Notes under the pieces: model-generated
The model's database searches: none
What the model saw: the letters and a program-made list of their open reading frames with translations, nothing else
Told to the model about the DNA's origin: nothing
Program-made: the position numbers and the translations under genes
DNA from: Vectrevirus T205P4
Direction: 5' to 3' (one strand)
Sequence record: OZ035727.1
DNA: 44,005 bases
Shown: positions 3,786 to 36,687 of the stretch, piece after piece
Layout: each line of letters starts with the position of its first letter
Numbering within the stretch: the first letter of the stretch is position 1

Positions 3786-3858
3786 GGTCTGCTTTAGTAA
3801 GCCTGACGCTACAAAATTAGGTTTGTATATTCTTTCGCTAGAACGCGGATATAATTAA
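3649..3858 (+). CDS. Putative o-spanin (Rz1-like outer-membrane lipoprotein), about 69 aa, GTG start
   Basis: AAGGAGG RBS 6 nt before GTG at 3649; signal peptide with lipobox-like LTTSGC; overlaps the 3564 ORF in the +1 frame, as in T7 18.5/18.7 (T7 Rz1 lipobox ISGC). Confidence 0.55.
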   Translation: MKRIRLVTILLIGSLTTSGCQQALPEKAMVKPLRPTLTEVYEVDDKVCFSKPDATKLGLYILSLERGYN

Positions 3859-3887
3859 TACATAGCTTTATGTATCAGTGTCTTACG

Positions 3888-3910
3888 ATTTACTGGACAC
3901 TATAGAAGAG
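3888..3910 (+). promoter_or_regulatory. Phage RNAP promoter P2 (ATTTACTGGACACTATAGAAGAG) driving the tailspike genes
   Basis: Near-perfect consensus copy 80 nt upstream of the tailspike 1 start. Confidence 0.8.
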
Positions 3911-3989
3911 GTAAGATAGCGCCGTTCTTTTGAGCGGCCTATTACTAGCCAATCTTCATAGGGAGGGTTGGAAAGTAATAGGAGATAGC

Positions 3990-5888
3990 ATGGCTAAATT
4001 AACCAAACCTAATACTGAAGGAATCTTGCATAAAGGACAATCTTTGTATGAGTACCTTGATGCGAGAGTTTTAACATCAAAGCCGTTTGGTGCTGTAGGT
4101 GACGCCACTACTGATGATACGGAGGTTATAGCTGCTTCATTAAACTCTCAGAAAGCTGTCACAATCTCAGACGGTGTATTCTCTAGCTCTGGTATTAATA
4201 GTAATTACTGTAACTTAGACGGTAGAGGTAGTGGGGTGCTAAGTCACCGTTCCAGTGCAGGTAACTACTTAGTATTTAACAATCCACGTACAGGTCGCTT
4301 AAGTAATATTACGGTAGAAAGTAATAAGGCGACTGATACAACTCAGGGACAGCAGGTATCTCTTGCTGGTGGAAGTGATGTTACTGTAAGTGACGTTAAC
4401 TTCTCAAACGTTAAAGGTACTGGTTTCAGTTTAATCGCATACCCTAATGATGCGCCACCTGATGGACTTATGATTAAAGGCATTCGAGGTAGCTATTCAG
4501 GCTATGCTACTAATAAGGCAGCCGGATGCGTACTTGCTGACTCCTCAGTTAACTCCCTCATAGATAACGTCATTGCTAAGAACTACCCTCAGTTCGGAGC
4601 AGTAGAGTTGAAAGGTACAGCCAGTTACAACATAGTCAGTAATGTTATAGGGGCAGATTGCCAGCATGTAACTTACAACGGCACCGAAGGGCCAATAGCT
4701 CCTTCTAATAACCTTATCAAGGGGGTGATGGCTAATAACCCTAAGTATGCAGCGGTTGTTGCAGGCAAAGGAAGTACGAACTTAATCTCAGACGTGCTTG
4801 TAGATTACTCAACTTCTGATGCTAGGCAGGCTCATGGTGTTACCGTAGAAGGGTCTGATAACGTCATAAATAATGTGCTTATGTCAGGATGTGATGGTAC
4901 TAACTCTTTAGGACAAGGGCAGACCGCTACAATTGCACGCTTTATAGGTACAGCTAATAACAACTATGCGTCTGTATTTCCTAGCTACAGTGCTACAGGT
5001 GTTATTACTTTCGAATCCGGCTCTACCCGTAACTTCGTAGAGGTAAAGCACCCTGGCAGGAGAAACGACCTTCTCAGTTCTGCTAGTACTATTGACGGTG
5101 CAGCTACTATTGACGGCACTAATAATAGTAACGTAGTACACGCACCTGCATTAGGGCAGTACATAGGTAGTATGTCAGGTAGGTTCGAATGGCGGATTAA
5201 GTCCATGTCACTCCCTTCAGGCGTTCTTACTTCTGCTGATAAGTACAGAATGCTTGGGGATGGTGCTGTATCATTAGCTGTAGGTGGGGGTACTTCTTCT
5301 CAAGTTCGCCTATTTACTTCTGATGGTACTTCTCGGACAGTGGCCCTCACCAACGGTAACGTGCGTCTTTCTACCAGTAGCACAGGCTATTTGCAGTTAG
5401 GTGCTGATGCAATGACCCCAGATAGTACTGGTACATACGCATTAGGTTCCGCCAGTCGAGCATGGTCTGGAGGTTTTACTCAAGCAGCATTCACTGTTAC
5501 ATCAGATGCTCGGTGTAAAACAGAACCTCTTACTATCTCAGATGCCTTACTGGATGCTTGGTCTGAAGTTGACTTTGTGCAGTTTCAGTATTTGGATCGT
5601 GTTGAGGAGAAGGGTGCAGACTCAGCTAGATGGCACTTTGGCATCATCGCTCAGCGAGCTAAGGAGGCTTTCGAACGCCACGGTATAGATGCACATCGCT
5701 ATGGCTTCTTGTGCTTCGACAGTTGGGATGATGTATACGAGGAAGATGCCAATGGCTCTCGTAAACTGATTACACCAGCAGGTTCCCGCTACGGTATTCG
5801 TTACGAGGAAGTGCTGATATTAGAGGCTGCGTTGATGCGGAGGACTATTAAGCGTATGCAGGAAGCACTAGCTTCCCTGCCTAAGTAA
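3990..5888 (+). CDS. Tailspike protein 1 (632 aa): beta-helix depolymerase with C-terminal intramolecular chaperone domain; K5-lyase/endosialidase-type architecture
   Basis: AGGAGA RBS before ATG at 3990 (MAKLTKPNTEG...); repetitive beta-helix-like middle; C-terminal SDARCK...RWHFGIIAQRAKEAFERHGID...YEEVLILEA resembles the autocleaving chaperone domain of endosialidase/K5 lyase tailspikes. Confidence 0.88.
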   Translation: MAKLTKPNTEGILHKGQSLYEYLDARVLTSKPFGAVGDATTDDTEVIAASLNSQKAVTISDGVFSSSGINSNYCNLDGRGSGVLSHRSSAGNYLVFNNPRTGRLSNITVESNKATDTTQGQQVSLAGGSDVTVSDVNFSNVKGTGFSLIAYPNDAPPDGLMIKGIRGSYSGYATNKAAGCVLADSSVNSLIDNVIAKNYPQFGAVELKGTASYNIVSNVIGADCQHVTYNGTEGPIAPSNNLIKGVMANNPKYAAVVAGKGSTNLISDVLVDYSTSDARQAHGVTVEGSDNVINNVLMSGCDGTNSLGQGQTATIARFIGTANNNYASVFPSYSATGVITFESGSTRNFVEVKHPGRRNDLLSSASTIDGAATIDGTNNSNVVHAPALGQYIGSMSGRFEWRIKSMSLPSGVLTSADKYRMLGDGAVSLAVGGGTSSQVRLFTSDGTSRTVALTNGNVRLSTSSTGYLQLGADAMTPDSTGTYALGSASRAWSGGFTQAAFTVTSDARCKTEPLTISDALLDAWSEVDFVQFQYLDRVEEKGADSARWHFGIIAQRAKEAFERHGIDAHRYGFLCFDSWDDVYEEDANGSRKLITPAGSRYGIRYEEVLILEAALMRRTIKRMQEALASLPK

Positions 5889-5973: not shown

Positions 5974-7632
5974 ATGCTACAACGATTAAGTTCTTCACTA
6001 GTGAAGCACAAGAGCAAGCTAATAGGCGCTACCTATAGGCTGCTTGGTGATAAACTTTTAGAGCTAAATAGTGTATCAGATTTTGGTGCAATACCAAATC
6101 TTGAAACAGATAGTACTAATTCCATTCAAGCTGCAATTGATGCGACCCCGTCTGGTGGTACTCTAGGCTTCTATGGTGGGCCTTATAGATTTGGTACTGT
6201 TACAGTGGATAAACCAATTACACTAGTTGGAGATGCAGATTTGCAGTTTGAGTGCATTCGTATCAAGACAAGTAAGTTTCGTAGTTTCTTGACAGGAACA
6301 CTAACTGCTGCGAGATACGACAGTGCATGTCGTGCATTTCAAATCTTAGCCTATGAAGATGGGCAAGATTATGAGGACATCAAGGTACATGGTGCACGTT
6401 TCGAGGGTTTCTTCTATAACACAGACTTCCGAGGCCGCTCTTACGATGCGTCAGAAAGTGATCCTGCTAACAGAGTGGTTCGGGATACCTCTATTATGGG
6501 CTGTACTTCAGTTCAGCCTAAAGATGGTAAAGACAGAGGGCACTTTCAACACGTAGGTGTAACCAATGCCAAATGCATAGGTAACTCAACGTATGGCGGC
6601 AAGAATGCCACTTCTTATAACTTCATTAATGGTAATGGCTCTTTGGTGGTTATGGGTAACTATGACCATGACAATGAATATGGCTCATTAGAGATTGAGA
6701 ATAACAAGATAAGCTATGGTGTGGTTACTGGTAATATCTTCCATAAACAACTATGGATAGATGATACTAGCAACATTAATGTAATAGGTAACACCTGCAC
6801 AGATAGGATTTACATTACTGCACAATCTAACAACTCTGAGAACGTATCAGTAGTGGGAAACAATGTACCACGCATCTACGTCAGTAAGTTTGGTCAAAGC
6901 CCAACAGGTCGTCACCGTAACTTGACCATACGTGGTAATCATATCACTGGCAAGGATGTTCCTAACTGTATATTCTTAGACGATTCTGTGGATTCCGCTT
7001 CTATTGAGGGTAATGATTGTTATGGTGTATCTGGTGTTAGAGGCATAGCCATTACTCGTCATGCAGATGCTAACCATACAGTGCGTCATAATAACTTACA
7101 TGGCACTAACTTGCTCTTTAGTGGTTCGGGTGGCAAAGTTTATAGTTATGACAACTTTGATGTTGGAGTTGATGAATCACCTGTGACAGACAGAACTGAC
7201 GCAGTGCACATTGACAACCTTCTTCGTGTAAATGATGAGTACCTTGATTTGCCAGGAAAGTACCTATACAAATCTAAGTATACAAGAGACATTACACAAG
7301 GAGGCTCCACCACTATTGAGTTACCTATAACCACAAGTGGTACTTTGGCTTTTCGTGGTATTAGTTTATGGGTTCTTATCCGTAACACTTCTACTGGTAA
7401 CTTGTCTTCTTATCGTGTCGATGGAAGACATGCAGTAAGTGGTTCTTCTGTGACTGTTAGTTTTGGAGAGAAGTATGGGGTATTAGGGGTGAATACTGGT
7501 GATGTTACTATTAGTAATGATGCCTCTACGACTAATCTTATTCGTATCAAGGTAAGCAATGAGCATGTAAGTCAGACAATGCAGGTCACAGTTGTACCAG
7601 AGGTAACAAGCAGATTGGGAACTGAAGAGTAA
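5974..7632 (+). CDS. Tailspike protein 2 (552 aa), right-handed beta-helix (pectate-lyase-like) receptor-binding/depolymerase protein
   Basis: AAGGAGG RBS; repeated VxGN/NxxxG beta-helix rungs (VIGNTCTDRIYIT, VVGNNVPRIYVS, IRGNHITGKD); second spike gene directly after spike 1, as in K1-5/SP6-type phages. Confidence 0.85.
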   Translation: MLQRLSSSLVKHKSKLIGATYRLLGDKLLELNSVSDFGAIPNLETDSTNSIQAAIDATPSGGTLGFYGGPYRFGTVTVDKPITLVGDADLQFECIRIKTSKFRSFLTGTLTAARYDSACRAFQILAYEDGQDYEDIKVHGARFEGFFYNTDFRGRSYDASESDPANRVVRDTSIMGCTSVQPKDGKDRGHFQHVGVTNAKCIGNSTYGGKNATSYNFINGNGSLVVMGNYDHDNEYGSLEIENNKISYGVVTGNIFHKQLWIDDTSNINVIGNTCTDRIYITAQSNNSENVSVVGNNVPRIYVSKFGQSPTGRHRNLTIRGNHITGKDVPNCIFLDDSVDSASIEGNDCYGVSGVRGIAITRHADANHTVRHNNLHGTNLLFSGSGGKVYSYDNFDVGVDESPVTDRTDAVHIDNLLRVNDEYLDLPGKYLYKSKYTRDITQGGSTTIELPITTSGTLAFRGISLWVLIRNTSTGNLSSYRVDGRHAVSGSSVTVSFGEKYGVLGVNTGDVTISNDASTTNLIRIKVSNEHVSQTMQVTVVPEVTSRLGTEE

Positions 7633-25443: not shown

Positions 25444-26443
25444 GCTTCGCAGCTTGTACAAAGACTCCGAGGTACTTGATGCAATCGAGCAAGCTACCGA
25501 CGAGAAAGGTAATGTTAATTACAATGAGATGGCACGTGTATTATCGTGTCACCCTGTGGGTAAGAAGATTACCCGCCAGTTGGCTCGATACTGGCATGGT
25601 CAATTCAAGAAGACCAAGAAGAATGGTGATTATTACCAGACCCTTCTGCAAGAAGATAAGCGTATCAAAGAAGAGCGTAAGCTCAGGACTCCTGACCGCT
25701 ACGAGGATTTGGCTATTGTACCATTGCCTGACTCGCCTCATCGAAGTGTACTGGTAATCCCTGATACTCATGCACCTTATGAGCATCCAGATACCTTAGA
25801 GTTCCTTGCAGCAGTCGCGGCACGTTACCGTCCAGATACAGTGGTTCACTTAGGAGATGAGGCAGATAAACACGCCCTCTCCTTCCATGACTCTGACCCG
25901 AATCTGGATAGTGCTGGCATGGAGCTAGAGAAGGCTCGTGTCTTCATGCACAAATTGCACAAGATGTTCCCTGTGATGAGACTGTGTCACTCCAACCACG
26001 GCTCTATGCACTTCCGTAAGGCAAGCGCTAAGGGCATTCCTGTGCAATACCTGCGCACCTACCGTGAAGTCTTCTTCCCGCAGGGAGGTGGCGACCAGTG
26101 GGACTGGCAGCATACTCATGTTCTTGAGCTACCTAATGGTGAACAGGTGGCGTTCAAGCATCAACCTGCTGGCTCTGTTCTAGCAGATGCAGCGCATGAG
26201 CGCATGAACCTAGTGTGCGGTCACTTGCATGGTAAGATGTCTGTGGAGTACGCACGTAATACACATGAACAGTATTGGGCTGTGCAGGGTGGCTGCTTAA
26301 TTGATGAGTCATCCCGTGCCTTTGCCTATGGGCGTGAGTCTAAATACAAGCCAGCATTAGGTTGTGTGGTTATTTTGGAAGGTGTGCCTCATATTGTCCC
26401 GATGCAAACCAATAGCGACAACCGTTGGATTGGCAAGATTTAG
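25436..26443 (+). CDS. Calcineurin-like metallophosphoesterase, about 335 aa (TTG start proposed; alternative ATG at 25526)
   Basis: Motifs VIPDTHAPYEH, HLGDE, GHLHG; AAGGAGG RBS 6 nt before TTG at 25436. Confidence 0.7.
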   Translation: MGKLRSLYKDSEVLDAIEQATDEKGNVNYNEMARVLSCHPVGKKITRQLARYWHGQFKKTKKNGDYYQTLLQEDKRIKEERKLRTPDRYEDLAIVPLPDSPHRSVLVIPDTHAPYEHPDTLEFLAAVAARYRPDTVVHLGDEADKHALSFHDSDPNLDSAGMELEKARVFMHKLHKMFPVMRLCHSNHGSMHFRKASAKGIPVQYLRTYREVFFPQGGGDQWDWQHTHVLELPNGEQVAFKHQPAGSVLADAAHERMNLVCGHLHGKMSVEYARNTHEQYWAVQGGCLIDESSRAFAYGRESKYKPALGCVVILEGVPHIVPMQTNSDNRWIGKI

Positions 26444-26461
26444 TTGACACTATAGAACAAA
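26438..26461 (+). promoter_or_regulatory. Phage RNAP promoter P9 (GATTTAGTTGACACTATAGAACAA)
   Basis: Consensus-like, closest to the canonical SP6 form in its upstream half; overlaps the phosphoesterase stop. Confidence 0.65.
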
Positions 26462-26543: not shown

Positions 26544-27047
26544 ATGTCACACTATGAATGTAAGAAGTGTCATAAGCGTTATGATTACTGTACTTGTGGT
26601 CAAGAGAAAACATCTTTTAAAGTTGGAGACAAGGTATTTCGTAATGAAAAAGATTCGATTCCTTGGAATCAATACTGCAAAGAAGCTGGTATCGACCCTG
26701 ATAGCCCTGTAACCATAGATGATATTGATGGCATTAACTTGTGCTTTCGTGAGGTGAGGGGTACAGGTTGGGATTCCAAAAAATTCAAACTTGCATCTGA
26801 TAAGTTAGACAACAATATGGTAACTAAGCCTAAGCACTACGAGTTCTTTGATGGCGTAGAGGCAATCACTATCATTGCCCGCAGTATGACCGAGAAGCAA
26901 TTCGCTGGCTATTGCATGGGTAATGCTTTGAAGTACCGTCTACGTGCAGGTAAGAAGTTCAACACTGAAGAAGACCTGAAGAAAGCAGATTACTACAAAG
27001 AGTTATTCCAGAAGCATCGTCACGAATGTATTGATGAGGATATTTGA
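26544..27047 (+). CDS. DUF3310-type phage protein with N-terminal zinc ribbon (T7 gp1.7 nucleotide-kinase-like family), about 167 aa
   Basis: CKKCHK...CTCG zinc ribbon; KPKHYEFFDGVEAI...GNALKYRLRAGKK...EDLKKADYY fits the DUF3310 pattern as I recall it. Confidence 0.55.
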   Translation: MSHYECKKCHKRYDYCTCGQEKTSFKVGDKVFRNEKDSIPWNQYCKEAGIDPDSPVTIDDIDGINLCFREVRGTGWDSKKFKLASDKLDNNMVTKPKHYEFFDGVEAITIIARSMTEKQFAGYCMGNALKYRLRAGKKFNTEEDLKKADYYKELFQKHRHECIDEDI

Positions 27048-27048
27048 T

Positions 27049-27996
27049 ATGAATATCTTTGAGTTCCTAGGTCTTCCAGAAGACCACCGCAATCACCCAT
27101 TCATGCTGGTGAAGCATCGCGGTGAAGTTCCTGAGAAGAAATTAACTTTTCCATGTTATGCACAGGTGAAACGAGATGGTATCTTTTCTGCTGTTGTTGT
27201 TCGCACTGATGGTGTCGTTGGCATTTTTGGTCGCACTGGTAAGAAATTGGCAAACACTGAAGGCCTCGAACAAGCATTTGCTACCTTTCCGGTTGGCATT
27301 TATCTTGGTGAGCTTCAGTCTATGGCCATTGATATCTACCTTGAGGCAATCTCTGGGGTTGTGAACCCCAATCGCACTGAGCCACTTGATTTCATAGGCC
27401 AGCAGATTAAAGACAACCTGTATATCGACTTCTTCGATATGTTAACTATTAAGGCATTCCATGATGGATTCACTGATGTTTCTTATCTCAAACGTTACGA
27501 TGCTTTACATCGCCGCATCGGCGCTCATCTTAGCGGGTACAACGCTATCCTTCCTATTACTCCTTGCCATAATGAGCGAGAAGTTGAAGCGTTTGCGCAA
27601 GAGCAGATAGACGCAGGCCGAGAGGGTGCTGTGTTTAAACTGGACTGTGATTATGAAGCAGGACATAAAGGTTATCGTCAGACTAAAGAAGTCCGTAAGG
27701 TAACTTATGACCTTACTTGTATTGGCTTTGAAGAAGGTAAAGGCAAATACAAAGGTAAGGTAGCTAACCTCATTTTCAAATGGAAAGGAGGCAAGACAAT
27801 CAAAGCTATGTTAGGTAAGGGGTGGGCTCATGCAGATGCAGAACAGATGTTCCACGACATTAAACATGGTGGACGATTGAATGTCATTGGTAAAATCTTT
27901 GAAGTCAAAGGTCTTCAGGATTCAAGCAAGGGCAACATTCGTCTGCCCAAAGCGGGAGAATTAAGACATGACAAAGATGAACCAGATTTCTTTTGA
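27049..27996 (+). CDS. ATP-dependent DNA ligase (T7 gp1.3-like), about 315 aa
   Basis: Adenylation motif AQVKRDG, EGAVFK and LIFKWK motifs. Confidence 0.85.
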   Translation: MNIFEFLGLPEDHRNHPFMLVKHRGEVPEKKLTFPCYAQVKRDGIFSAVVVRTDGVVGIFGRTGKKLANTEGLEQAFATFPVGIYLGELQSMAIDIYLEAISGVVNPNRTEPLDFIGQQIKDNLYIDFFDMLTIKAFHDGFTDVSYLKRYDALHRRIGAHLSGYNAILPITPCHNEREVEAFAQEQIDAGREGAVFKLDCDYEAGHKGYRQTKEVRKVTYDLTCIGFEEGKGKYKGKVANLIFKWKGGKTIKAMLGKGWAHADAEQMFHDIKHGGRLNVIGKIFEVKGLQDSSKGNIRLPKAGELRHDKDEPDFF

Positions 27997-28183
27997 TAGC
28001 ATGAAGGCAACTCGTGCAGTTGAGGTAGCAGAAGCTATCTTTGAAACTTTATCCTGTGGCATGGAAGTGCCATATACTTTACTTGCTGATGCAGAAGAAC
28101 TTGGTCTTTCTGTAGAAGCTATCCAAGAGAAGGTTGACGAATTATATGGTACAGACGAAGAAGAAACCGACGATTTCATTTGA
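27968..28183 (+). CDS. Hypothetical acidic protein, 71 aa (ends ...EEETDDFI)
   Basis: GGGAGA RBS; overlaps ligase 3' end. Confidence 0.45.
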   Translation: MTKMNQISFDSMKATRAVEVAEAIFETLSCGMEVPYTLLADAEELGLSVEAIQEKVDELYGTDEEETDDFI

Positions 28184-28316
28184 AGGAATGGAGATGCTTG
28201 AGATGATTCTCAAGCCTTCTTCTCCGAAGGTGACTAAGACTCATGAAGAGTTAATCGTTGATGAAGTGAAGCGTTACATCATGGATTGTGTCAGAGCACA
28301 ACTGGTGGTTCAATGA
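28146..28316 (+). CDS. Hypothetical small protein (start uncertain, 42-60 aa)
   Basis: ATGA stop/start overlap with the downstream GNAT gene supports translation; start codon not resolved. Confidence 0.3.
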   Translation: MVQTKKKPTISFEGMEMLEMILKPSSPKVTKTHEELIVDEVKRYIMDCVRAQLVVQ

Positions 28317-28774
28317 TACGTCCAGCTTCCTTCCTAGATATTCCTGAGATTATAAACCTTGGGAATAAATATGTGGAAGAGGAAGTCAAGGTAGTGGCCC
28401 ATCACTCAGCCTCATGGAATGCAGAACAAAGTGCACATAACCTTTGTGCATCTCTTAGTAGAGAAGATTTATTCCTATGGGTGGCTGTAGATGAAGGGAA
28501 GATTGTAGGGTTCCTGTGGGCTGGCTATCACGAGTTAGCCCCTTGGACACCTGTAAGGGTTGCCTCTGACATTCTCTTTTACATTATACCAGAGAAGCGA
28601 GGGACACTACTAGGTATGCGTCTTATCAAGGCTCTTAAACAATGGGCTAATGAAAATGAATGCTCTGAGGTTCGCCTGTCTATCGCCTCTGGTATTAATG
28701 AAGAACGTGTCGGACGTATGTATAAGCGACTTGGCTTTGAACCGTTTGGCACTGTGTACAACCTGAAGTTCTAA
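28313..28774 (+). CDS. GNAT-family N-acetyltransferase, about 153 aa
   Basis: KIVGFLWAGYHE followed by IPEKRGTLLGMRLIKAL resembles the GNAT acetyl-CoA binding motif (Q/R-x-x-G-x-G/A). Confidence 0.65.
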   Translation: MIRPASFLDIPEIINLGNKYVEEEVKVVAHHSASWNAEQSAHNLCASLSREDLFLWVAVDEGKIVGFLWAGYHELAPWTPVRVASDILFYIIPEKRGTLLGMRLIKALKQWANENECSEVRLSIASGINEERVGRMYKRLGFEPFGTVYNLKF

Positions 28775-28783
28775 GGAGATAAC

Positions 28784-28993
28784 ATGGGTGTTGTAAAGAA
28801 AGCATTTAAGGCTATCGGTCTTGCTCAAGATGCACCACGTATTGAAGCCAAAGTCCCAGCACAGCAGCTTGAGCGTAAGCCTGAGACTGAAGCTGAAGAT
28901 ATTCAAATTGGTGCAGGTGGTGATGATGCGACTGCATCTGCAAAAGGTAAGCGCGGCCTTGTCCGTCCGGTAGCTTCTAGCTTGAAGGTGTAA
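28784..28993 (+). CDS. Hypothetical small basic protein, 69 aa (possible minor virion protein)
   Basis: AAGGAGA RBS; directly precedes the portal gene. Confidence 0.5.
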   Translation: MGVVKKAFKAIGLAQDAPRIEAKVPAQQLERKPETEAEDIQIGAGGDDATASAKGKRGLVRPVASSLKV

Positions 28994-28994
28994 T

Positions 28995-30545
28995 ATGAAA
29001 CAGAGCACAGATTTGGAGTATGGAGGTAAGCGGTCTAAGATACCTAAGCTATGGGAGAAGTTCTCCACTAAACGTAGCTCTTTCCTTGATAGGGCGAAGC
29101 ATTACTCCAAATTAACCTTGCCCTATCTGATGAATGACAAAGGTGATAACGAGACTTCGCAGAATGGATGGCAAGGTGTAGGTGCTCAGGCAACTAATCA
29201 TCTAGCCAACAAGCTAGCGCAAGTACTATTTCCTGCACAGCGTTCCTTCTTCCGTGTAGACTTAACTGCACAAGGTGAGAAGGTTCTTAATCAGCGTGGC
29301 CTGAAGAAGACAGAGCTAGCTACCATCTTCGCTCAAGTGGAAACACGGGCAATGAAAGAGTTAGAGCAACGTCAATTCCGGCCTGCTGTAGTGGAAGCAT
29401 TCAAGCATCTTATTGTTGCTGGTAGCTGTATGCTATACAAGCCGAGCAAAGGTGCAATCAGTGCTATCCCAATGCATCACTATGTAGTTAACCGTGATAC
29501 CAATGGCGACCTGTTAGACATTATCTTACTGCAAGAGAAAGCCTTACGCACCTTTGACCCAGCTACACGTGCTGTAGTAGAGGTTGGCCTGAAAGGTAAG
29601 AAGTGCAAGGAGGATGACAGCGTTAAGCTGTACACACATGCTAAGTATCTTGGTGATGGATTTTGGGAACTCAAGCAATCTGCTGATGATATCCCTGTGG
29701 GTAAGGTGAGTAAAATCAAATCAGAAAAGCTACCTTTCATCCCATTAACTTGGAAGCGAAGCTATGGTGAGGATTGGGGTCGCCCTCTTGCAGAGGATTA
29801 CTCCGGTGATTTATTCGTTATCCAATTCTTATCTGAAGCGGTTGCCCGTGGTGCTGCGCTGATGGCAGATATCAAGTACCTGATTCGTCCGGGTGCTCAA
29901 ACTGATGTTGACCACTTTGTTAACTCTGGCACTGGTGAGGTTGTCACTGGTGTAGAAGAAGACATCCATATTGTACAGTTAGGTAAGTACGCAGACCTCA
30001 CACCTATTAGCGCGGTTCTAGAGGTATACACTCGCCGTATCGGTGTTGTCTTCATGATGGAGACAATGACACGCCGTGACGCCGAACGTGTTACTGCTGT
30101 AGAAATCCAGCGAGATGCGTTAGAGATTGAGCAGAACATGGGTGGTGTATACTCCCTCTTTGCTACTACTATGCAATCGCCAGTAGCGATGTGGGGTCTG
30201 CTGGAGGCAGGGGAGTCCTTCACTAGTGACTTAGTGGACCCTGTGATTATCACAGGTATTGAAGCTTTAGGACGCATGGCTGAGTTGGATAAACTGGCTA
30301 ACTTTGCTCAGTATATGTCACTGCCATTACAATGGCCTGAGCCTGTCCTAGCTGCTGTGAAATGGCCTGACTATATGGATTGGGTGCGTGGTCAAATCTC
30401 TGCTGAACTGCCGTTCCTTAAATCGGCTGAAGAGATGGCACAAGAACAGGAAGCACAGATGCAAGCACAGCAAGCACAGATGCTTGAAGAAGGTGTGGCT
30501 AAGGCCGTGCCGGGTGTAATTCAACAAGAACTTAAGGAGGCGTAA
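28995..30545 (+). CDS. Head-tail connector (portal) protein, T7 gp8-like, 516 aa
   Basis: Size and position before scaffold and capsid genes; acidic Gln/Ala/Glu-rich C-terminus. Confidence 0.85.
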   Translation: MKQSTDLEYGGKRSKIPKLWEKFSTKRSSFLDRAKHYSKLTLPYLMNDKGDNETSQNGWQGVGAQATNHLANKLAQVLFPAQRSFFRVDLTAQGEKVLNQRGLKKTELATIFAQVETRAMKELEQRQFRPAVVEAFKHLIVAGSCMLYKPSKGAISAIPMHHYVVNRDTNGDLLDIILLQEKALRTFDPATRAVVEVGLKGKKCKEDDSVKLYTHAKYLGDGFWELKQSADDIPVGKVSKIKSEKLPFIPLTWKRSYGEDWGRPLAEDYSGDLFVIQFLSEAVARGAALMADIKYLIRPGAQTDVDHFVNSGTGEVVTGVEEDIHIVQLGKYADLTPISAVLEVYTRRIGVVFMMETMTRRDAERVTAVEIQRDALEIEQNMGGVYSLFATTMQSPVAMWGLLEAGESFTSDLVDPVIITGIEALGRMAELDKLANFAQYMSLPLQWPEPVLAAVKWPDYMDWVRGQISAELPFLKSAEEMAQEQEAQMQAQQAQMLEEGVAKAVPGVIQQELKEA

Positions 30546-31468: not shown

Positions 31469-31493
31469 GTATTTACTGGACACTATAGAAGGG
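31469..31493 (+). promoter_or_regulatory. Phage RNAP promoter P10 (TATTTACTGGACACTATAGAAGGG) for the capsid gene, with 5' leader hairpin GGGAGA-AATG-TCTCCC
   Basis: Perfect consensus; the transcript would begin with a 6-bp stem-loop. Confidence 0.85.
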
Positions 31494-32801: not shown

Positions 32802-33539
32802 ATGCCTGTAATTAAACAAACCAGTAAAGTAGGGCACATGATGGAAGATGTGGCCTTCCAGATTATTGATAGCAAGCTTGAAGCGGTCAACTTGTGTATG
32901 CGAGCTATTGGTCGTGAGGGTGTGGATTCTCTCGACTCAGGCGATCTTGATGCAGAAGATGCAAGTAAGATGATTGATATTGTATCCCAGCGCTTCCAGT
33001 ATAACAAAGGCGGTGGCTGGTGGTTCAATCGTGAACCTAACTGGCAGCTTGCACCAGACACGAACGGTGAGATTAACTTGCCTAATAACTGCCTAGCTGT
33101 ATTGCAGTGCTACGCATTGGGTGAGAAGAAAGTGCCTATGACTATGCGAGCAGGTAAGCTCTACTCTACTTGGAGTCACACCTTTGATATGCGTAAGCAT
33201 GTTAATGCTAATGGTATGATTCGTCTTACCTTACTCACCTTACTACCCTACGAGCATCTACCTACAAGTGTAATGCAGGCTATTGCCTATCAAGCTGCTG
33301 TAGAGTTTATTGTGTCTAAGGATGCAGATCAGACTAAGCTAGCCACTGCGCAGCAGATAGCCACTCAGCTTCTTATGGATGTACAATCTGAGCAAATGTC
33401 ACAGAAGCGATTAAACATGCTGGTACATAACCCCACTCAGCGTCAGTTTGGTATCATGGCTGGTGGCTCTCAGAATGTACCTGCTTACTCTCATTCACCT
33501 TATGAAAGTTGGGCGCTCCGTCCGTGGGAGGATCGTTAA
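32802..33539 (+). CDS. Tail tubular protein A (gp11-like), about 245 aa
   Basis: AGGAGG RBS before ATG at 32802; position before tail tubular protein B. Confidence 0.8.
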   Translation: MPVIKQTSKVGHMMEDVAFQIIDSKLEAVNLCMRAIGREGVDSLDSGDLDAEDASKMIDIVSQRFQYNKGGGWWFNREPNWQLAPDTNGEINLPNNCLAVLQCYALGEKKVPMTMRAGKLYSTWSHTFDMRKHVNANGMIRLTLLTLLPYEHLPTSVMQAIAYQAAVEFIVSKDADQTKLATAQQIATQLLMDVQSEQMSQKRLNMLVHNPTQRQFGIMAGGSQNVPAYSHSPYESWALRPWEDR

Positions 33540-35941
33540 TGGAAGTACAAGGTTCATTAGGTAGACAAATCCAAGGGATTAGCCAGCAGCCTCCAGCGGT
33601 ACGTCTTGATGGTCAATGTACGACTATGGTGAACATGGTCCCTGATGTAGTGAATGGAACTCAATCCCGCATGGGTACAACTCACATTGCTAAGCTCTTG
33701 GATGAAGGTACAGATAATATGGCAACGCACCATTATCGCAGGGGTGAGGGAGATGAAGAGTATTTCTTCACCTTAAAGAAGGGGCAAGTGCCAGAGATAT
33801 TTGATAAGCATGGACGCAAGTGCAATGTCATCTCTCAAGATGCACCTATTGCCTACCTTTCTGAAGTTGTTAACCCTAGGGAAGATGTGCAATTCATGAC
33901 TATAGCTGATGTTACTTTTATGCTTAACCGTAGGAAAGTGGTTAAAGTTAGTAATAGGAAGTCACCTAAAGTTGGAGATAAAGCCATTGTGTTTTGTGCA
34001 TATGGTCAATACGGTACATCTTATTCCATTGTAATTAATGGGGCCAACGCTGCTAGTTTTAAAACACCGGATGGTGGAAGTGCAGACCATGTTGAACAAA
34101 TTCGAACTGAACGTATCACTTCTGAATTGTACTCTAAGTTGCAGCAATGGAGCGGTGTGAGTGACTATGAAATACAAAGAGACGGTACTAGTATATTTAT
34201 CGAGAGACGGGATGGTGCTAGCTTTACAATAACAACCACCGATGGTGCAAAAGGTAAGGACTTAGTGGCTATCAAGAATAAAGTTAGCTCTACTGACCTA
34301 CTCCCTTCTCGTGCTCCTGCTGGTTATAAAGTACAAGTGTGGCCTACTGGCAGCAAACCTGAGTCTCGTTACTGGCTGCAAGCTGAGCCTAAAGAGGGAA
34401 ACCTTGTATCTTGGAAAGAAACAATAGCTGCCGATGTATTACTTGGGTTTGATAAAGGCACAATGCCTTACATTATTGAACGTACAGGTATCATCAACGG
34501 CATAGCTCAATTCAAGATAAGACAAGGTGATTGGGAAGATCGTAAAGTAGGGGATGACTTGACTAACCCTATGCCCTCTTTTATTGATGAGGAAGTACCC
34601 CAGACAATAGGTGGAATGTTCATGGTGCAGAACCGCCTATGCTTTACAGCAGGTGAAGCGGTTATTGCTTCTCGTACATCATACTTCTTCGATTTCTTTC
34701 GTTATACGGTTATCTCTGCATTGGCAACTGACCCATTTGATATTTTCTCAGATGCTAGCGAAGTCTACCAGCTAAAACATGCAGTGACCTTAGATGGCGC
34801 TACCGTGTTGTTCTCTGATAAGTCACAATTCATACTGCCAGGCGATAAGCCTTTAGAGAAGTCAAATGCATTGCTTAAGCCTGTTACAACATTTGAAGTG
34901 AACAATAAAGTGAAGCCAGTAGTAACTGGTGAATCGGTAATGTTTGCCACTAATGATGGTTCTTACTCTGGTGTACGAGAGTTCTATACAGACTCTTATA
35001 GTGACACTAAGAAGGCACAAGCAATCACAAGTCATGTGAATAAACTCATCGAAGGTAACATTACCAACATGGCAGCAAGCACCAATGTCAACAGGTTACT
35101 TGTCACTACCGATAAGTATCGTAACATAATCTACTGCTACGATTGGTTATGGCAAGGAACAGACCGTGTACAATCAGCATGGCATGTATGGAAGTGGCCT
35201 ATAGGTACAAAGGTGCGAGGTATGTTTTATTCTGGTGAATTACTTTACCTGCTCCTTGAGCGAGGGGATGGCGTATATCTGGAGAGGATGGACATGGGTG
35301 ATGCACTAACCTACGGTTTGAATGACCGCATCAGAATGGATAGGCAAGCAGAGTTAGTCTTCAAGTATTTTAAAGCAGAAGATGAATGGGTGTCTGAACC
35401 GCTTCCTTGGACTCCTACTAACCCAGAACTTTTAGATTGCATCTTAATCGAGGGTTGGGATTCATATATTGGTGGCTCTTTCTTATTCAAGTACAACCCT
35501 AGTGACAATACTTTGTCTACAACCTTTGATATGTATGATGACAGTCATGTAAAAGCGAAGGTTATTGTTGGTCAGATTTACCCTCAAGAGTTTGAACCTA
35601 CACCTGTGGTTATCAGAGACAATCAAGACCGTGTATCCTATATTGATGTACCAGTTGTAGGATTGGTTCACCTTAATCTTGACATGTACCCCGATTTCTC
35701 CGTAGAAGTTAAGAATGTGAAGAGTGGTAAAGTACGTAGAGTATTAGCGTCAAACCGTATAGGTGGTGCTCTCAATAATACAGTAGGCTATGTTGAACCG
35801 AGAGAAGGTGTCTTCAGATTTCCACTGAGAGCTAAGAGCACGGATGTTGTTTATCGTATTATTGTAGAGGCACCCCATACATTCCAGCTTCGTGATATTG
35901 AGTGGGAAGGGAGCTACAATCCAACCAAAAGGAGGGTCTAA
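33539..35941 (+). CDS. Tail tubular protein B (gp12-like), about 800 aa
   Basis: N-terminal GISQQP motif as in T7 gp12; TAATG coupling to the upstream gene. Confidence 0.88.
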   Translation: MEVQGSLGRQIQGISQQPPAVRLDGQCTTMVNMVPDVVNGTQSRMGTTHIAKLLDEGTDNMATHHYRRGEGDEEYFFTLKKGQVPEIFDKHGRKCNVISQDAPIAYLSEVVNPREDVQFMTIADVTFMLNRRKVVKVSNRKSPKVGDKAIVFCAYGQYGTSYSIVINGANAASFKTPDGGSADHVEQIRTERITSELYSKLQQWSGVSDYEIQRDGTSIFIERRDGASFTITTTDGAKGKDLVAIKNKVSSTDLLPSRAPAGYKVQVWPTGSKPESRYWLQAEPKEGNLVSWKETIAADVLLGFDKGTMPYIIERTGIINGIAQFKIRQGDWEDRKVGDDLTNPMPSFIDEEVPQTIGGMFMVQNRLCFTAGEAVIASRTSYFFDFFRYTVISALATDPFDIFSDASEVYQLKHAVTLDGATVLFSDKSQFILPGDKPLEKSNALLKPVTTFEVNNKVKPVVTGESVMFATNDGSYSGVREFYTDSYSDTKKAQAITSHVNKLIEGNITNMAASTNVNRLLVTTDKYRNIIYCYDWLWQGTDRVQSAWHVWKWPIGTKVRGMFYSGELLYLLLERGDGVYLERMDMGDALTYGLNDRIRMDRQAELVFKYFKAEDEWVSEPLPWTPTNPELLDCILIEGWDSYIGGSFLFKYNPSDNTLSTTFDMYDDSHVKAKVIVGQIYPQEFEPTPVVIRDNQDRVSYIDVPVVGLVHLNLDMYPDFSVEVKNVKSGKVRRVLASNRIGGALNNTVGYVEPREGVFRFPLRAKSTDVVYRIIVEAPHTFQLRDIEWEGSYNPTKRRV

Positions 35942-36687
35942 TGGCTATAGGTTCAGCCGTTATGGCTGGTATGTCTTCTATTGGTAGTATGTTTGCAGGT
36001 AGCGGTACAGCAGCCGCTGCTGGTGGTACTGCCGCAGCAGCAGGAGGGACAGCCGCCGCAGGTGGCGGAGGTTTGCTTGGCTCCCTTGGTAGTTTCTTAG
36101 GAGGTTCTTCTGCTGGCTTCTCTAATGCAGGACTGCTTAGTGCAGGTATGCAAGGTCTTGGTCTTCTAGGCAATCTTTTTGGTGGAAGTGATGAAGCCAA
36201 AGCTATGAAGAAAGCTCAGGAGGAGCAATGGCGGCAGCAGTTAATTGCTACACAAGAAGCATATAAGACAGTGGCAGATGCAGAACGCTCTGCTGCTAAA
36301 CAGTATCATGCGGATGCAATAAGCAATCAGGCTTCACTGCTACAGCAAAGAGCGCAGGTTGCACTACTTGCAGGTGCAACTGGCACTGGTGGTAACTCTA
36401 TATCTTCTATGCTGAATGACTTAGCAGCAGAGGGCGGGAGGAACCAGAGTACAATTATTGATAACTATGAGAATCAGAAGATTAACTTCACCAATCAGCT
36501 TAAGTCTATCCAGCGAGGTGGACAGATGCAGATGCGTGAGTTTAAGAAGCCTTCTGCCGTGAGCACCTTGGTGCAAGGTATACCGAGTCTGGCATCTGCC
36601 TATGTAACAGGTAGTAAGTCCGGCATGGCTTTAGGTAAAGCTTTAACTGATTCTCGTACATATTCATCTGGAACAAGAGGTATTTAA
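35941..36687 (+). CDS. Internal virion protein (gp14-like, Gly/Ala-rich N-terminus), about 249 aa
   Basis: AGGAGGG RBS; first of three internal-core genes. Confidence 0.7.
   Translation: MAIGSAVMAGMSSIGSMFAGSGTAAAAGGTAAAAGGTAAAGGGGLLGSLGSFLGGSSAGFSNAGLLSAGMQGLGLLGNLFGGSDEAKAMKKAQEEQWRQQLIATQEAYKTVADAERSAAKQYHADAISNQASLLQQRAQVALLAGATGTGGNSISSMLNDLAAEGGRNQSTIIDNYENQKINFTNQLKSIQRGGQMQMREFKKPSAVSTLVQGIPSLASAYVTGSKSGMALGKALTDSRTYSSGTRGI

Follow-up and report, generated by a model that had tools for sequence, protein, structure and literature searches.

The genome of Vectrevirus T205P4 (sequence record OZ035727.1; its 44,005 nucleotides are referred to throughout as the window) encodes on its + strand, at 28313..28774, a small GNAT N-acetyltransferase of 153 amino acids plus stop, the orthologue of K1-5 gp27, K1E gp27 and SP6 gp28. 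The gene is a resident, ancestral and probably late-expressed gene of a conserved slot in Autographiviridae genomes, just upstream of the portal gene, rather than a recently acquired accessory gene. The best explanation of its function, to which we give a probability of about 45%, is that the slot holds a competent GNAT, distantly homologous to the Rac protein of phage LUZ19, which would acetylate proteins at the switch to late gene functions.

Sequence profiles and a structural model together confirm that the open reading frame (ORF) encodes a real single-domain protein of predicted GNAT fold, with a signature well above chance. Acetyltransf_1 (PF00583) is matched with an E of 3.5e-10 and 40.6 bits against a cutoff of 20.7, and Acetyltransf_7 (PF13508; 38.0 against 27) and Acetyltransf_10 (PF13673; 26.5 against 23.6) likewise score above the Pfam gathering cutoffs. 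The PHROG profile phrog_1249 ('acetyltransferase') covers residues 1-151 with an E of 4.2e-54, and phrog_3810 and phrog_6472 are matched as well. An AlphaFold2 model built with 20 homologues reaches a predicted local distance difference test (pLDDT) score of 88.3 and shows the strand (b) and helix (a) topology b1-a1-a2-b2-b3-b4-a3-b5-a4-b6-b7; a Foldseek search against the PDB gave 679 matches at E <= 1e-3, the best 50 of which are all GNAT-type acetyltransferases. An earlier note on this DNA, made from the letters of the sequence, had read a GNAT-like acetyl-CoA signature into the ORF, and both the profiles and the fold bear it out. The family is large, with 1242 clusters at E <= 1e-10 (clustered at 50% identity), and among the best 150 of these nearly all members are about 150 amino acids long and single-domain. 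The gene is under purifying selection, the ratio of nonsynonymous to synonymous substitution rates (dN/dS) being 0.12 in comparison with SP6 and 0.08 in comparison with K1-5.

The start of the gene is fixed by the N-terminus MIRPA, whose residues M1, R3 and A5 are common to homologues across the family, and the ATG at 28313 is also the start annotated in K1-5 and SP6. A Shine-Dalgarno-like GGTGG motif, as read from the sequence, lies 4 nucleotides (nt) upstream of it, within the preceding ORF (28304..28308, +). The ATGA overlap that had been described earlier is real: at 28313-28316 the ATG of the GNAT gene overlaps the TGA of the upstream phrog_6507 ORF, and comparable start/stop overlaps are found in K1-5, SP6, KNP, LIMEzero, LUZ19 and T7.

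The acetyl-CoA site and catalytic core were placed by aligning the protein with PA4866 and with a GNAT from Brucella. Residues R96-G97-T98-L99-L100-G101 align onto the RGKGLG motif of PA4866, that is, the acetyl-CoA pyrophosphate loop between b4 and a3 (codons of P93-G101, PEKRGTLLG, at 28589..28615, +), and N129 and Y137 fall on the Asn and Tyr positions of helix a4 (codons of N129-Y137 at 28697..28723, +, as aligned with homologues). From general knowledge of GNATs we take these two to be the canonical CoA-contacting Asn and the canonical general-acid Tyr. Positions 1 and 6 of the loop fit the canonical R/Q-x-x-G-x-G/A, of which the family-wide motif R-G-x-x-x-[AG] is a probably functional variant. 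Among 142 distant representatives R96 is conserved in 98%, G97 in 88%, A/G101 in 90% and Y137 in 73% (with F in a further 12%), while W111 and D/E86 reach 96% and 90%, respectively. Because R96, G97, A/G101 and Y137 are conserved across these representatives, acetyl-CoA chemistry appears to have been retained, and the protein is probably an active acetyl-CoA-dependent enzyme. The catalytic core whose presence on alignment the earlier note had made a point of checking looks intact, with a non-Gly residue at position 4 of the loop.

The slot in which the gene resides is a conserved feature of the family. The order small ORF(s), GNAT, small virion protein, portal and scaffold recurs across several Autographiviridae lineages and was seen in SP6, Era103, ECBP5, Vibrio phage AS51, LIMEzero, LUZ19 and Ghunavirus KNP; the slot is kept in Vectrevirus, Zindervirus, Eracentumvirus, Gajwadongvirus, Waewaevirus, Krylovirinae, Colwellvirinae and Ghunavirus. 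Metagenomic loci retrieved from IMG/VR with the profiles of three slot families have a GNAT-fold gene upstream of the portal gene in 63 of 63 cases, and in 62 of these the two genes flank a recognisable small 7.3-like ORF. From the end of the GNAT match to the start of the portal gene the distance is 221-414 nt, and about 650-725 nt in six T7-type loci, T7 included, where gene 7.7 (HNH) lies in between. The earlier statement that acetyltransferases do not belong to the core genes of T7, with its implication of an accessory gene, is misleading for a slot conserved in this way and filled in T7 itself by gene 7, the product of which has a predicted GNAT fold.

To our knowledge, the LUZ19 slot gene product Rac is the only characterised phage GNAT of the Autographiviridae. 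Rac and the window GNAT share slot, size and fold class, and both genes lie on units dependent on the phage RNA polymerase (RNAP), where the genes of DNA metabolism give way to the structural ones. When Rac is expressed alone the linker of the RNAP alpha subunit is cleaved and protein acetylation increases, and this effect runs through host proteases and is lost upon mutation of residues in the CoA pocket (PMC7552054). The two proteins differ in that Rac belongs to phrog_3986 rather than phrog_1249, the window GNAT not being a member of the Rac PHROG in the profile search, in that the C-terminal region of Rac is different and has no SGINEER...YxxLGF helix, and in the host, which is not that of Vectrevirus. 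A profile-profile comparison of the window family (143 sequences) with the Rac family (12 sequences) nevertheless aligns 132 columns with a probability of 95.4% and an E of 1.7e-8, as compared with an E of 0.32 for the reversed-sequence control, and the Rac-family profile, searched against the 508 six-frame ORFs of the window, ranks the GNAT ORF best (E 0.0037). The sole match of Rac outside its own PHROG is phrog_1249 (E 4.9e-4), which is also matched by the Rac-family member LIMEzero ORF36 (E 0.002); a word-index search with Rac as query returned one cluster. Sequence profiles thus mark the two families as homologous, remotely.

In T7 the slot is occupied by gene 7 (1131-1532 of the T7 stretch compared), which is annotated 'host range' and encodes a protein of 133 amino acids assigned to phrog_2746 and without a Pfam match. 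The T7 order 6.5, 6.7, 7, 7.3, (7.7), 8 matches that of KNP, namely 6.5-like, 6.7-like, Rac-family gene, 7.3-like and portal, and gene 7 resembles the window GNAT in lying directly 5' of gp7.3 and in overlapping the stop of the preceding gene. The AlphaFold2 model of T7 gp7 (pLDDT 90.6; b1-a1-a2-b2-b3-b4-a3-b5-b6) predicts a GNAT fold without helix a4, and its best 50 matches in the PDB are all GNATs. Once its own family is set aside, the viral structures nearest to it in BFVD come from Autographiviridae and are either GNATs or uncharacterised proteins, including Rac-family members from Axy23 and PPpW-4. LIMEzero ORF36 matches the PHROG of T7 gp7 with an E of 4.8e-6; direct sequence similarity of T7 gp7 to the window family does not reach significance (E 0.01-0.09, reversed controls 0.06-0.3). 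The proposed connection of T7 gp7 with the window GNAT is carried by synteny, by the predicted fold with its neighbours in BFVD and by the LIMEzero bridge, and our literature searches found neither a paper stating that T7 gp7 has a GNAT fold nor a molecular basis for the gene 7 phenotype. In T7 gp7 the sequence D-S-K-G-L-Q replaces the R-G motif of the loop and there is no Asn/Tyr pair; since both helix a4 and the loop motif are missing, the protein is probably non-catalytic and no acetyltransferase. In phiPsa17 the slot gene likewise bears the name gp7, and its product is absent from the mass spectrometry table of virion proteins in the phiPsa17 paper, as would be expected of an enzyme or an assembly factor more than of a structural protein.

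Transcription of the window GNAT can be traced to a single promoter of the phage RNAP. The + strand of the window carries 11 copies of the promoter consensus ATTTACTGGACACTATAGAAG, with cores ACACTATAG at 130-138, 2235, 3897, 14195, 16508, 17199, 21420, 22189, 23335, 26447 and 31480. The copy at 26438..26458 (+; ATTTAGTTGACACTATAGAAC) heads the GNAT transcription unit, the next one downstream (31471..31491, +) lies immediately 5' of the major capsid gene, and there is no further consensus copy on the + strand of the window between 26438 and 31471. A single phage-RNAP unit therefore runs from the DUF3310 gene through the ligase, two small ORFs, the GNAT and a basic protein of 69 amino acids to the portal and the scaffold. 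Scans for sigma-70 promoters and intrinsic terminators around the GNAT gene remained at background level.

Taken as a mechanism, the favoured explanation would run as follows. The GNAT is transcribed by the phage RNAP together with ligase, portal and scaffold, and its translation is coupled to that of the preceding small ORF. Acetyl-CoA would be held by the R96-G97...G101 loop and N129, and with Y137 as the general acid its acetyl group would pass to an amine of a protein while the infection turns from DNA metabolism to the assembly of particles. The output would be acetylated host proteins, contributing to host shutoff as with Rac. This last component, a Rac-like modification of host proteins, is put forward tentatively; by our reckoning it is possible rather than probable, and we rank it slightly above a role in virion infectivity.

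A number of observations weigh against this explanation. Pairwise BLASTP between the window GNAT and LUZ19 Rac gave no match, a shallow profile comparison of the window family with Rac reached only an E of 9e-4, and part of the Rac signal lies at the level of the superfamily, since both families are GNATs. The cleavage of RNAP alpha by Rac is itself genus-specific, the LKA1 homologue being without effect (PMC7552054). Position 4 of the pyrophosphate loop is non-Gly. The neighbours of the modelled fold among solved structures are as much small-molecule enzymes as protein N-terminal ones, so that the fold is no argument for a protein substrate. Autographiviridae gene order is conserved genome-wide, and the adjacency to gp7.3 and portal may reflect descent rather than a functional link. 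Finally, the searchable literature holds no biochemical or genetic data for the window GNAT or its close relatives, and searches for functional work on SP6 gp28, K1-5 gp27 or T7 gp7 found none. The host-takeover enzyme envisaged in the earlier note has as its only basis the analogy with LUZ19 Rac, which is distant and concerns a genus-specific effect (PMC7552054), and we do not uphold it in that form; what is partly supported of that interpretation is the enzyme class.

Of the competing explanations, the one that comes closest assigns the GNAT to the virion: it would acetylate or chaperone a component of the particle, such as the Lys-rich gp7.3-like protein or other ejected proteins, for adsorption and ejection, an ancestral role of the slot that T7 gene 7 would have kept. 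In all loci examined the GNAT lies directly 5' of the gp7.3-like gene and the portal, and in the window it is co-transcribed with portal and scaffold. T7 gp7.3 is located at the adaptor-nozzle junction and is required for adsorption-competent particles (PMC11784390), which, together with the 'host range' annotation and predicted GNAT fold of T7 gp7, would suit such a role. The family has, in addition, a second, independent placement within a virion module. The GNAT of Roseophage SIO1 (pc40; 2474-2935 of the stretch compared) is a true phrog_1249 member (E 2e-36, 28% identity), and in SIO1 and the cobaviruses (Zobellviridae), unlike in the window, the gene sits inside the module of tail and internal virion protein genes (PMC6775973). 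On the other hand, the T7 gp7 link, at an E of 0.01 against the same reversed controls, lacks significance, no acetylated virion protein has been reported, and the gene order may amount to simple inheritance. We regard a virion-infectivity factor as a contender worth keeping in view, if an unlikely one. A wider version of this idea is more speculative still, and we consider it rather improbable: the genes at the head of all Autographiviridae virion modules would descend from one ancestral GNAT, surviving as an active enzyme in the SP6, K1-5, Vibrio and Erwinia types, as Rac in the phiKMV and gh-1 types and as a degenerate gp7 in T7. The ancestral job would have been to acetylate or escort the ejected gp7.3-like or other ejection proteins, setting infectivity or host range, and the effect of Rac on RNAP alpha would represent a side activity specific to its lineage or a function gained in addition. 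The cobavirus authors have regarded the SIO1-type GNAT as the counterpart of T7 gp13 (PMC6775973). Equating the window GNAT with T7 gp13 (PF11090) was rejected, as hhalign gave an E of 0.17-0.43; a gp13 homologue was found nowhere in the window, where the gp14-family gene adjoins tail tube B, and T7 gp13 showed no sequence relation to any of the three slot families, although PF11090 may belong to the acetyltransferase clan of Pfam.

The enzyme could also act on a small molecule, detoxifying or consuming a metabolite, for instance a polyamine, a toxic analogue of an amino acid or an anti-phage natural product of the aminoglycoside type, and thereby conditioning the cell or evading a chemical defence. 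The protein is small and single-domain like the enzymes that do so, and its best matches include PA4866, BAR, ArsN (phosphinothricin or methionine sulfoximine, MSX), SSAT, DpA, SpeG and AAC(6'). The curated families of NCBIfam, however, all score far below their cutoffs, with 28.4 bits against 170 for ArsN1a and 25 against 210 among the ArsN1/PAT-type models, at best 26 (group E) against 140 for the AAC(6') models, and 24.4 against 86.4 for RimI, the ribosomal protein S18 alanine N-acetyltransferase. The nearest structures among the best 50 Foldseek matches are PAT/BAR/ArsN, Naa60 and polyamine acetyltransferases at template modelling (TM) scores of 0.69-0.80, with 0.78-0.80 for the ArsN1/PAT type, and 15-24% identity, and matches of this kind (TM 0.7-0.8), in sequence as in fold, are generic for any GNAT. 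Cellular small GNATs (PAT/BAR/ArsN, SSAT/SpeG/DpA, RimI/Naa) have the fold and the acetyl-CoA site in common with the window protein, whereas W111, D86, the APW loop and SGIN, which line the substrate site, are specific to the phage family. A late site at the virion module, in phages of hosts from Roseobacter to E. coli, is moreover atypical of drug-resistance cargo, and a small-molecule substrate seems to us improbable. Less probable again, and indeed very unlikely, is a non-catalytic assembly or scaffolding factor in which the GNAT fold was kept for binding. T7 gp7, in the same slot without helix a4 and with its D-S-K-G-L-Q loop, would be a precedent, and the non-Gly residue in the window loop points the same way; the conservation of R96, G97, A/G101 and Y137 across the 142 representatives argues against it, as does the loss of effect in CoA-pocket mutants of Rac (PMC7552054). 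The anti-defence enzyme that had also been suggested for this gene, which would switch off an immune protein of the host by acetylating it, in the way that AcrVA5 acts on Cas12a, has a precedent in GNAT anti-CRISPRs (cited in PMC7552054; PMC11021501). The sole PADLOC match is partial, with an E of 0.015, and thus not a meaningful defence match, and neither AcrVA5-type nor toxin-type GNATs are among the best 50 of the 679 Foldseek matches. The gene lies outside the early region and is not variable; near-universal, conserved and syntenic, it is unlike typical anti-defence accessory genes, and expression dependent on the phage RNAP would come late for countering immunity. We rate this function the least likely of those considered and do not retain the suggestion; what is left of the probability falls to other functions. 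Protein acetylation by a competent, Rac-related slot GNAT remains the explanation that we prefer.

The phage itself belongs to the Autographiviridae, subfamily Molineuxvirinae, genus Vectrevirus. Its genome had been described as T7-like, which is right in so far as it is a member of the T7 supergroup; it is SP6/K1-5-like and falls outside the T7-like phages in the narrow sense. A 3-kb stretch around the GNAT gene shows 99.8% identity to Vectrevirus T147P9 and 96-98% identity to a large number of E. coli K1 phages, K1-5 and K1E among them. At the level of the GNAT itself identity amounts to 96-100% within Vectrevirus and 76% to SP6. K1-5 gp27 (YP_654128), K1E gp27 and SP6 gp28 resemble the window gene in their flanks and in the ATGA overlap; the K1E and SP6 proteins are of the same length as that of the window, and K1-5 gp27 (3814-4341 of the K1-5 stretch compared) is longer by an insertion of 22 amino acids. 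The insertion, in the region of a1 and a2, results from a tandem duplication of 66 bp that is not present in the window, K1E or SP6 and reads HHSASWNAEQSA-ITFVHLLIET-HHSASWNAEQSA, the middle being out of frame through a 1-nt difference. Either a surface loop accommodates it, or it is the sign of a crippled enzyme in the type phage.

The position of the GNAT between ligase and structural module had been described correctly and can be refined. The first gene after the promoter at 26438 is the DUF3310 gene (26544-27047; E 2.5e-25), to which RefSeq gives the product name 'nucleotide kinase'. It is followed on the + strand by the ATP-dependent DNA ligase (27049..27996; Pfam DNA_ligase_A_M and DNA_ligase_OB_2) and by two small ORFs, a homologue of K1-5 gp25 (27968..28183; phrog_5860, no assigned function) and a homologue of K1-5 gp26 (28146..28316; phrog_6507, 56 amino acids). 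The start of the latter follows the K1-5 annotation and is ambiguous, as 28191 and 28197 are alternative ATGs to 28146. Downstream of the GNAT, the virion module opens with the basic 69-amino-acid protein of the T7 gp7.3 family of tail-channel or 'host range and adsorption' proteins (28784..28993, +; isoelectric point 9.5), which matches phrog_1320 with an E of 1.9e-11, as T7 gp7.3 does with an E of 9.7e-30; homology to gp6.7 was considered and rejected, its PHROG matches being to the gp7.3 family. The portal (head-tail adaptor) gene follows at 28995..30545 (+).

The window is a circular permutation of the gene order in the K1-5 reference, with the large terminase subunit at 326-2227. The gp14-family internal virion protein gene (35902-36687) lies directly 3' of tail tube B, within the region 33509-36687. 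Two genes are of tailspike type: one of 652 amino acids (3930-5888) with a C-terminal Peptidase_S74 intramolecular chaperone domain, and a second of 552 amino acids (5974-7632) with a weak N-terminal pectate-lyase-like match. Both sizes are presumably unlike those of the K1-5 lyase and endosialidase, and the capsule specificity of the T205P4 isolate may differ from that of K1-5. A 95-amino-acid ORF at 2679-2966 appears, by equal length and position only, to correspond to K1E gp42, which one genome paper labels 'putative acetyl-CoA acetyltransferase' (PMC4837284). As the ORF has no Pfam match, that label is probably spurious.

As an object the GNAT gene is ordinary and not new: it has long been annotated 'acetyltransferase' in K1-5, K1E, SP6 and dozens of their relatives, and it is present in essentially every member of the SP6 and K1-5 types. 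Studies of phage therapy make use of K1-5-like phages, and an effect of the enzyme on host proteins, virions or drugs would have some practical relevance for that use. The value of the gene lies in its context, as one and the same slot holds Rac, with its shutoff of the host RNAP, and the unexplained 'host range' gene 7 of T7. That SP6 gp28, Rac and T7 gp7 can be linked through their slot is a useful and testable by-product of the analysis, and work with an experimentally amenable E. coli K1 phage could show what a widespread family of late GNATs, with more than 1200 clusters, does.

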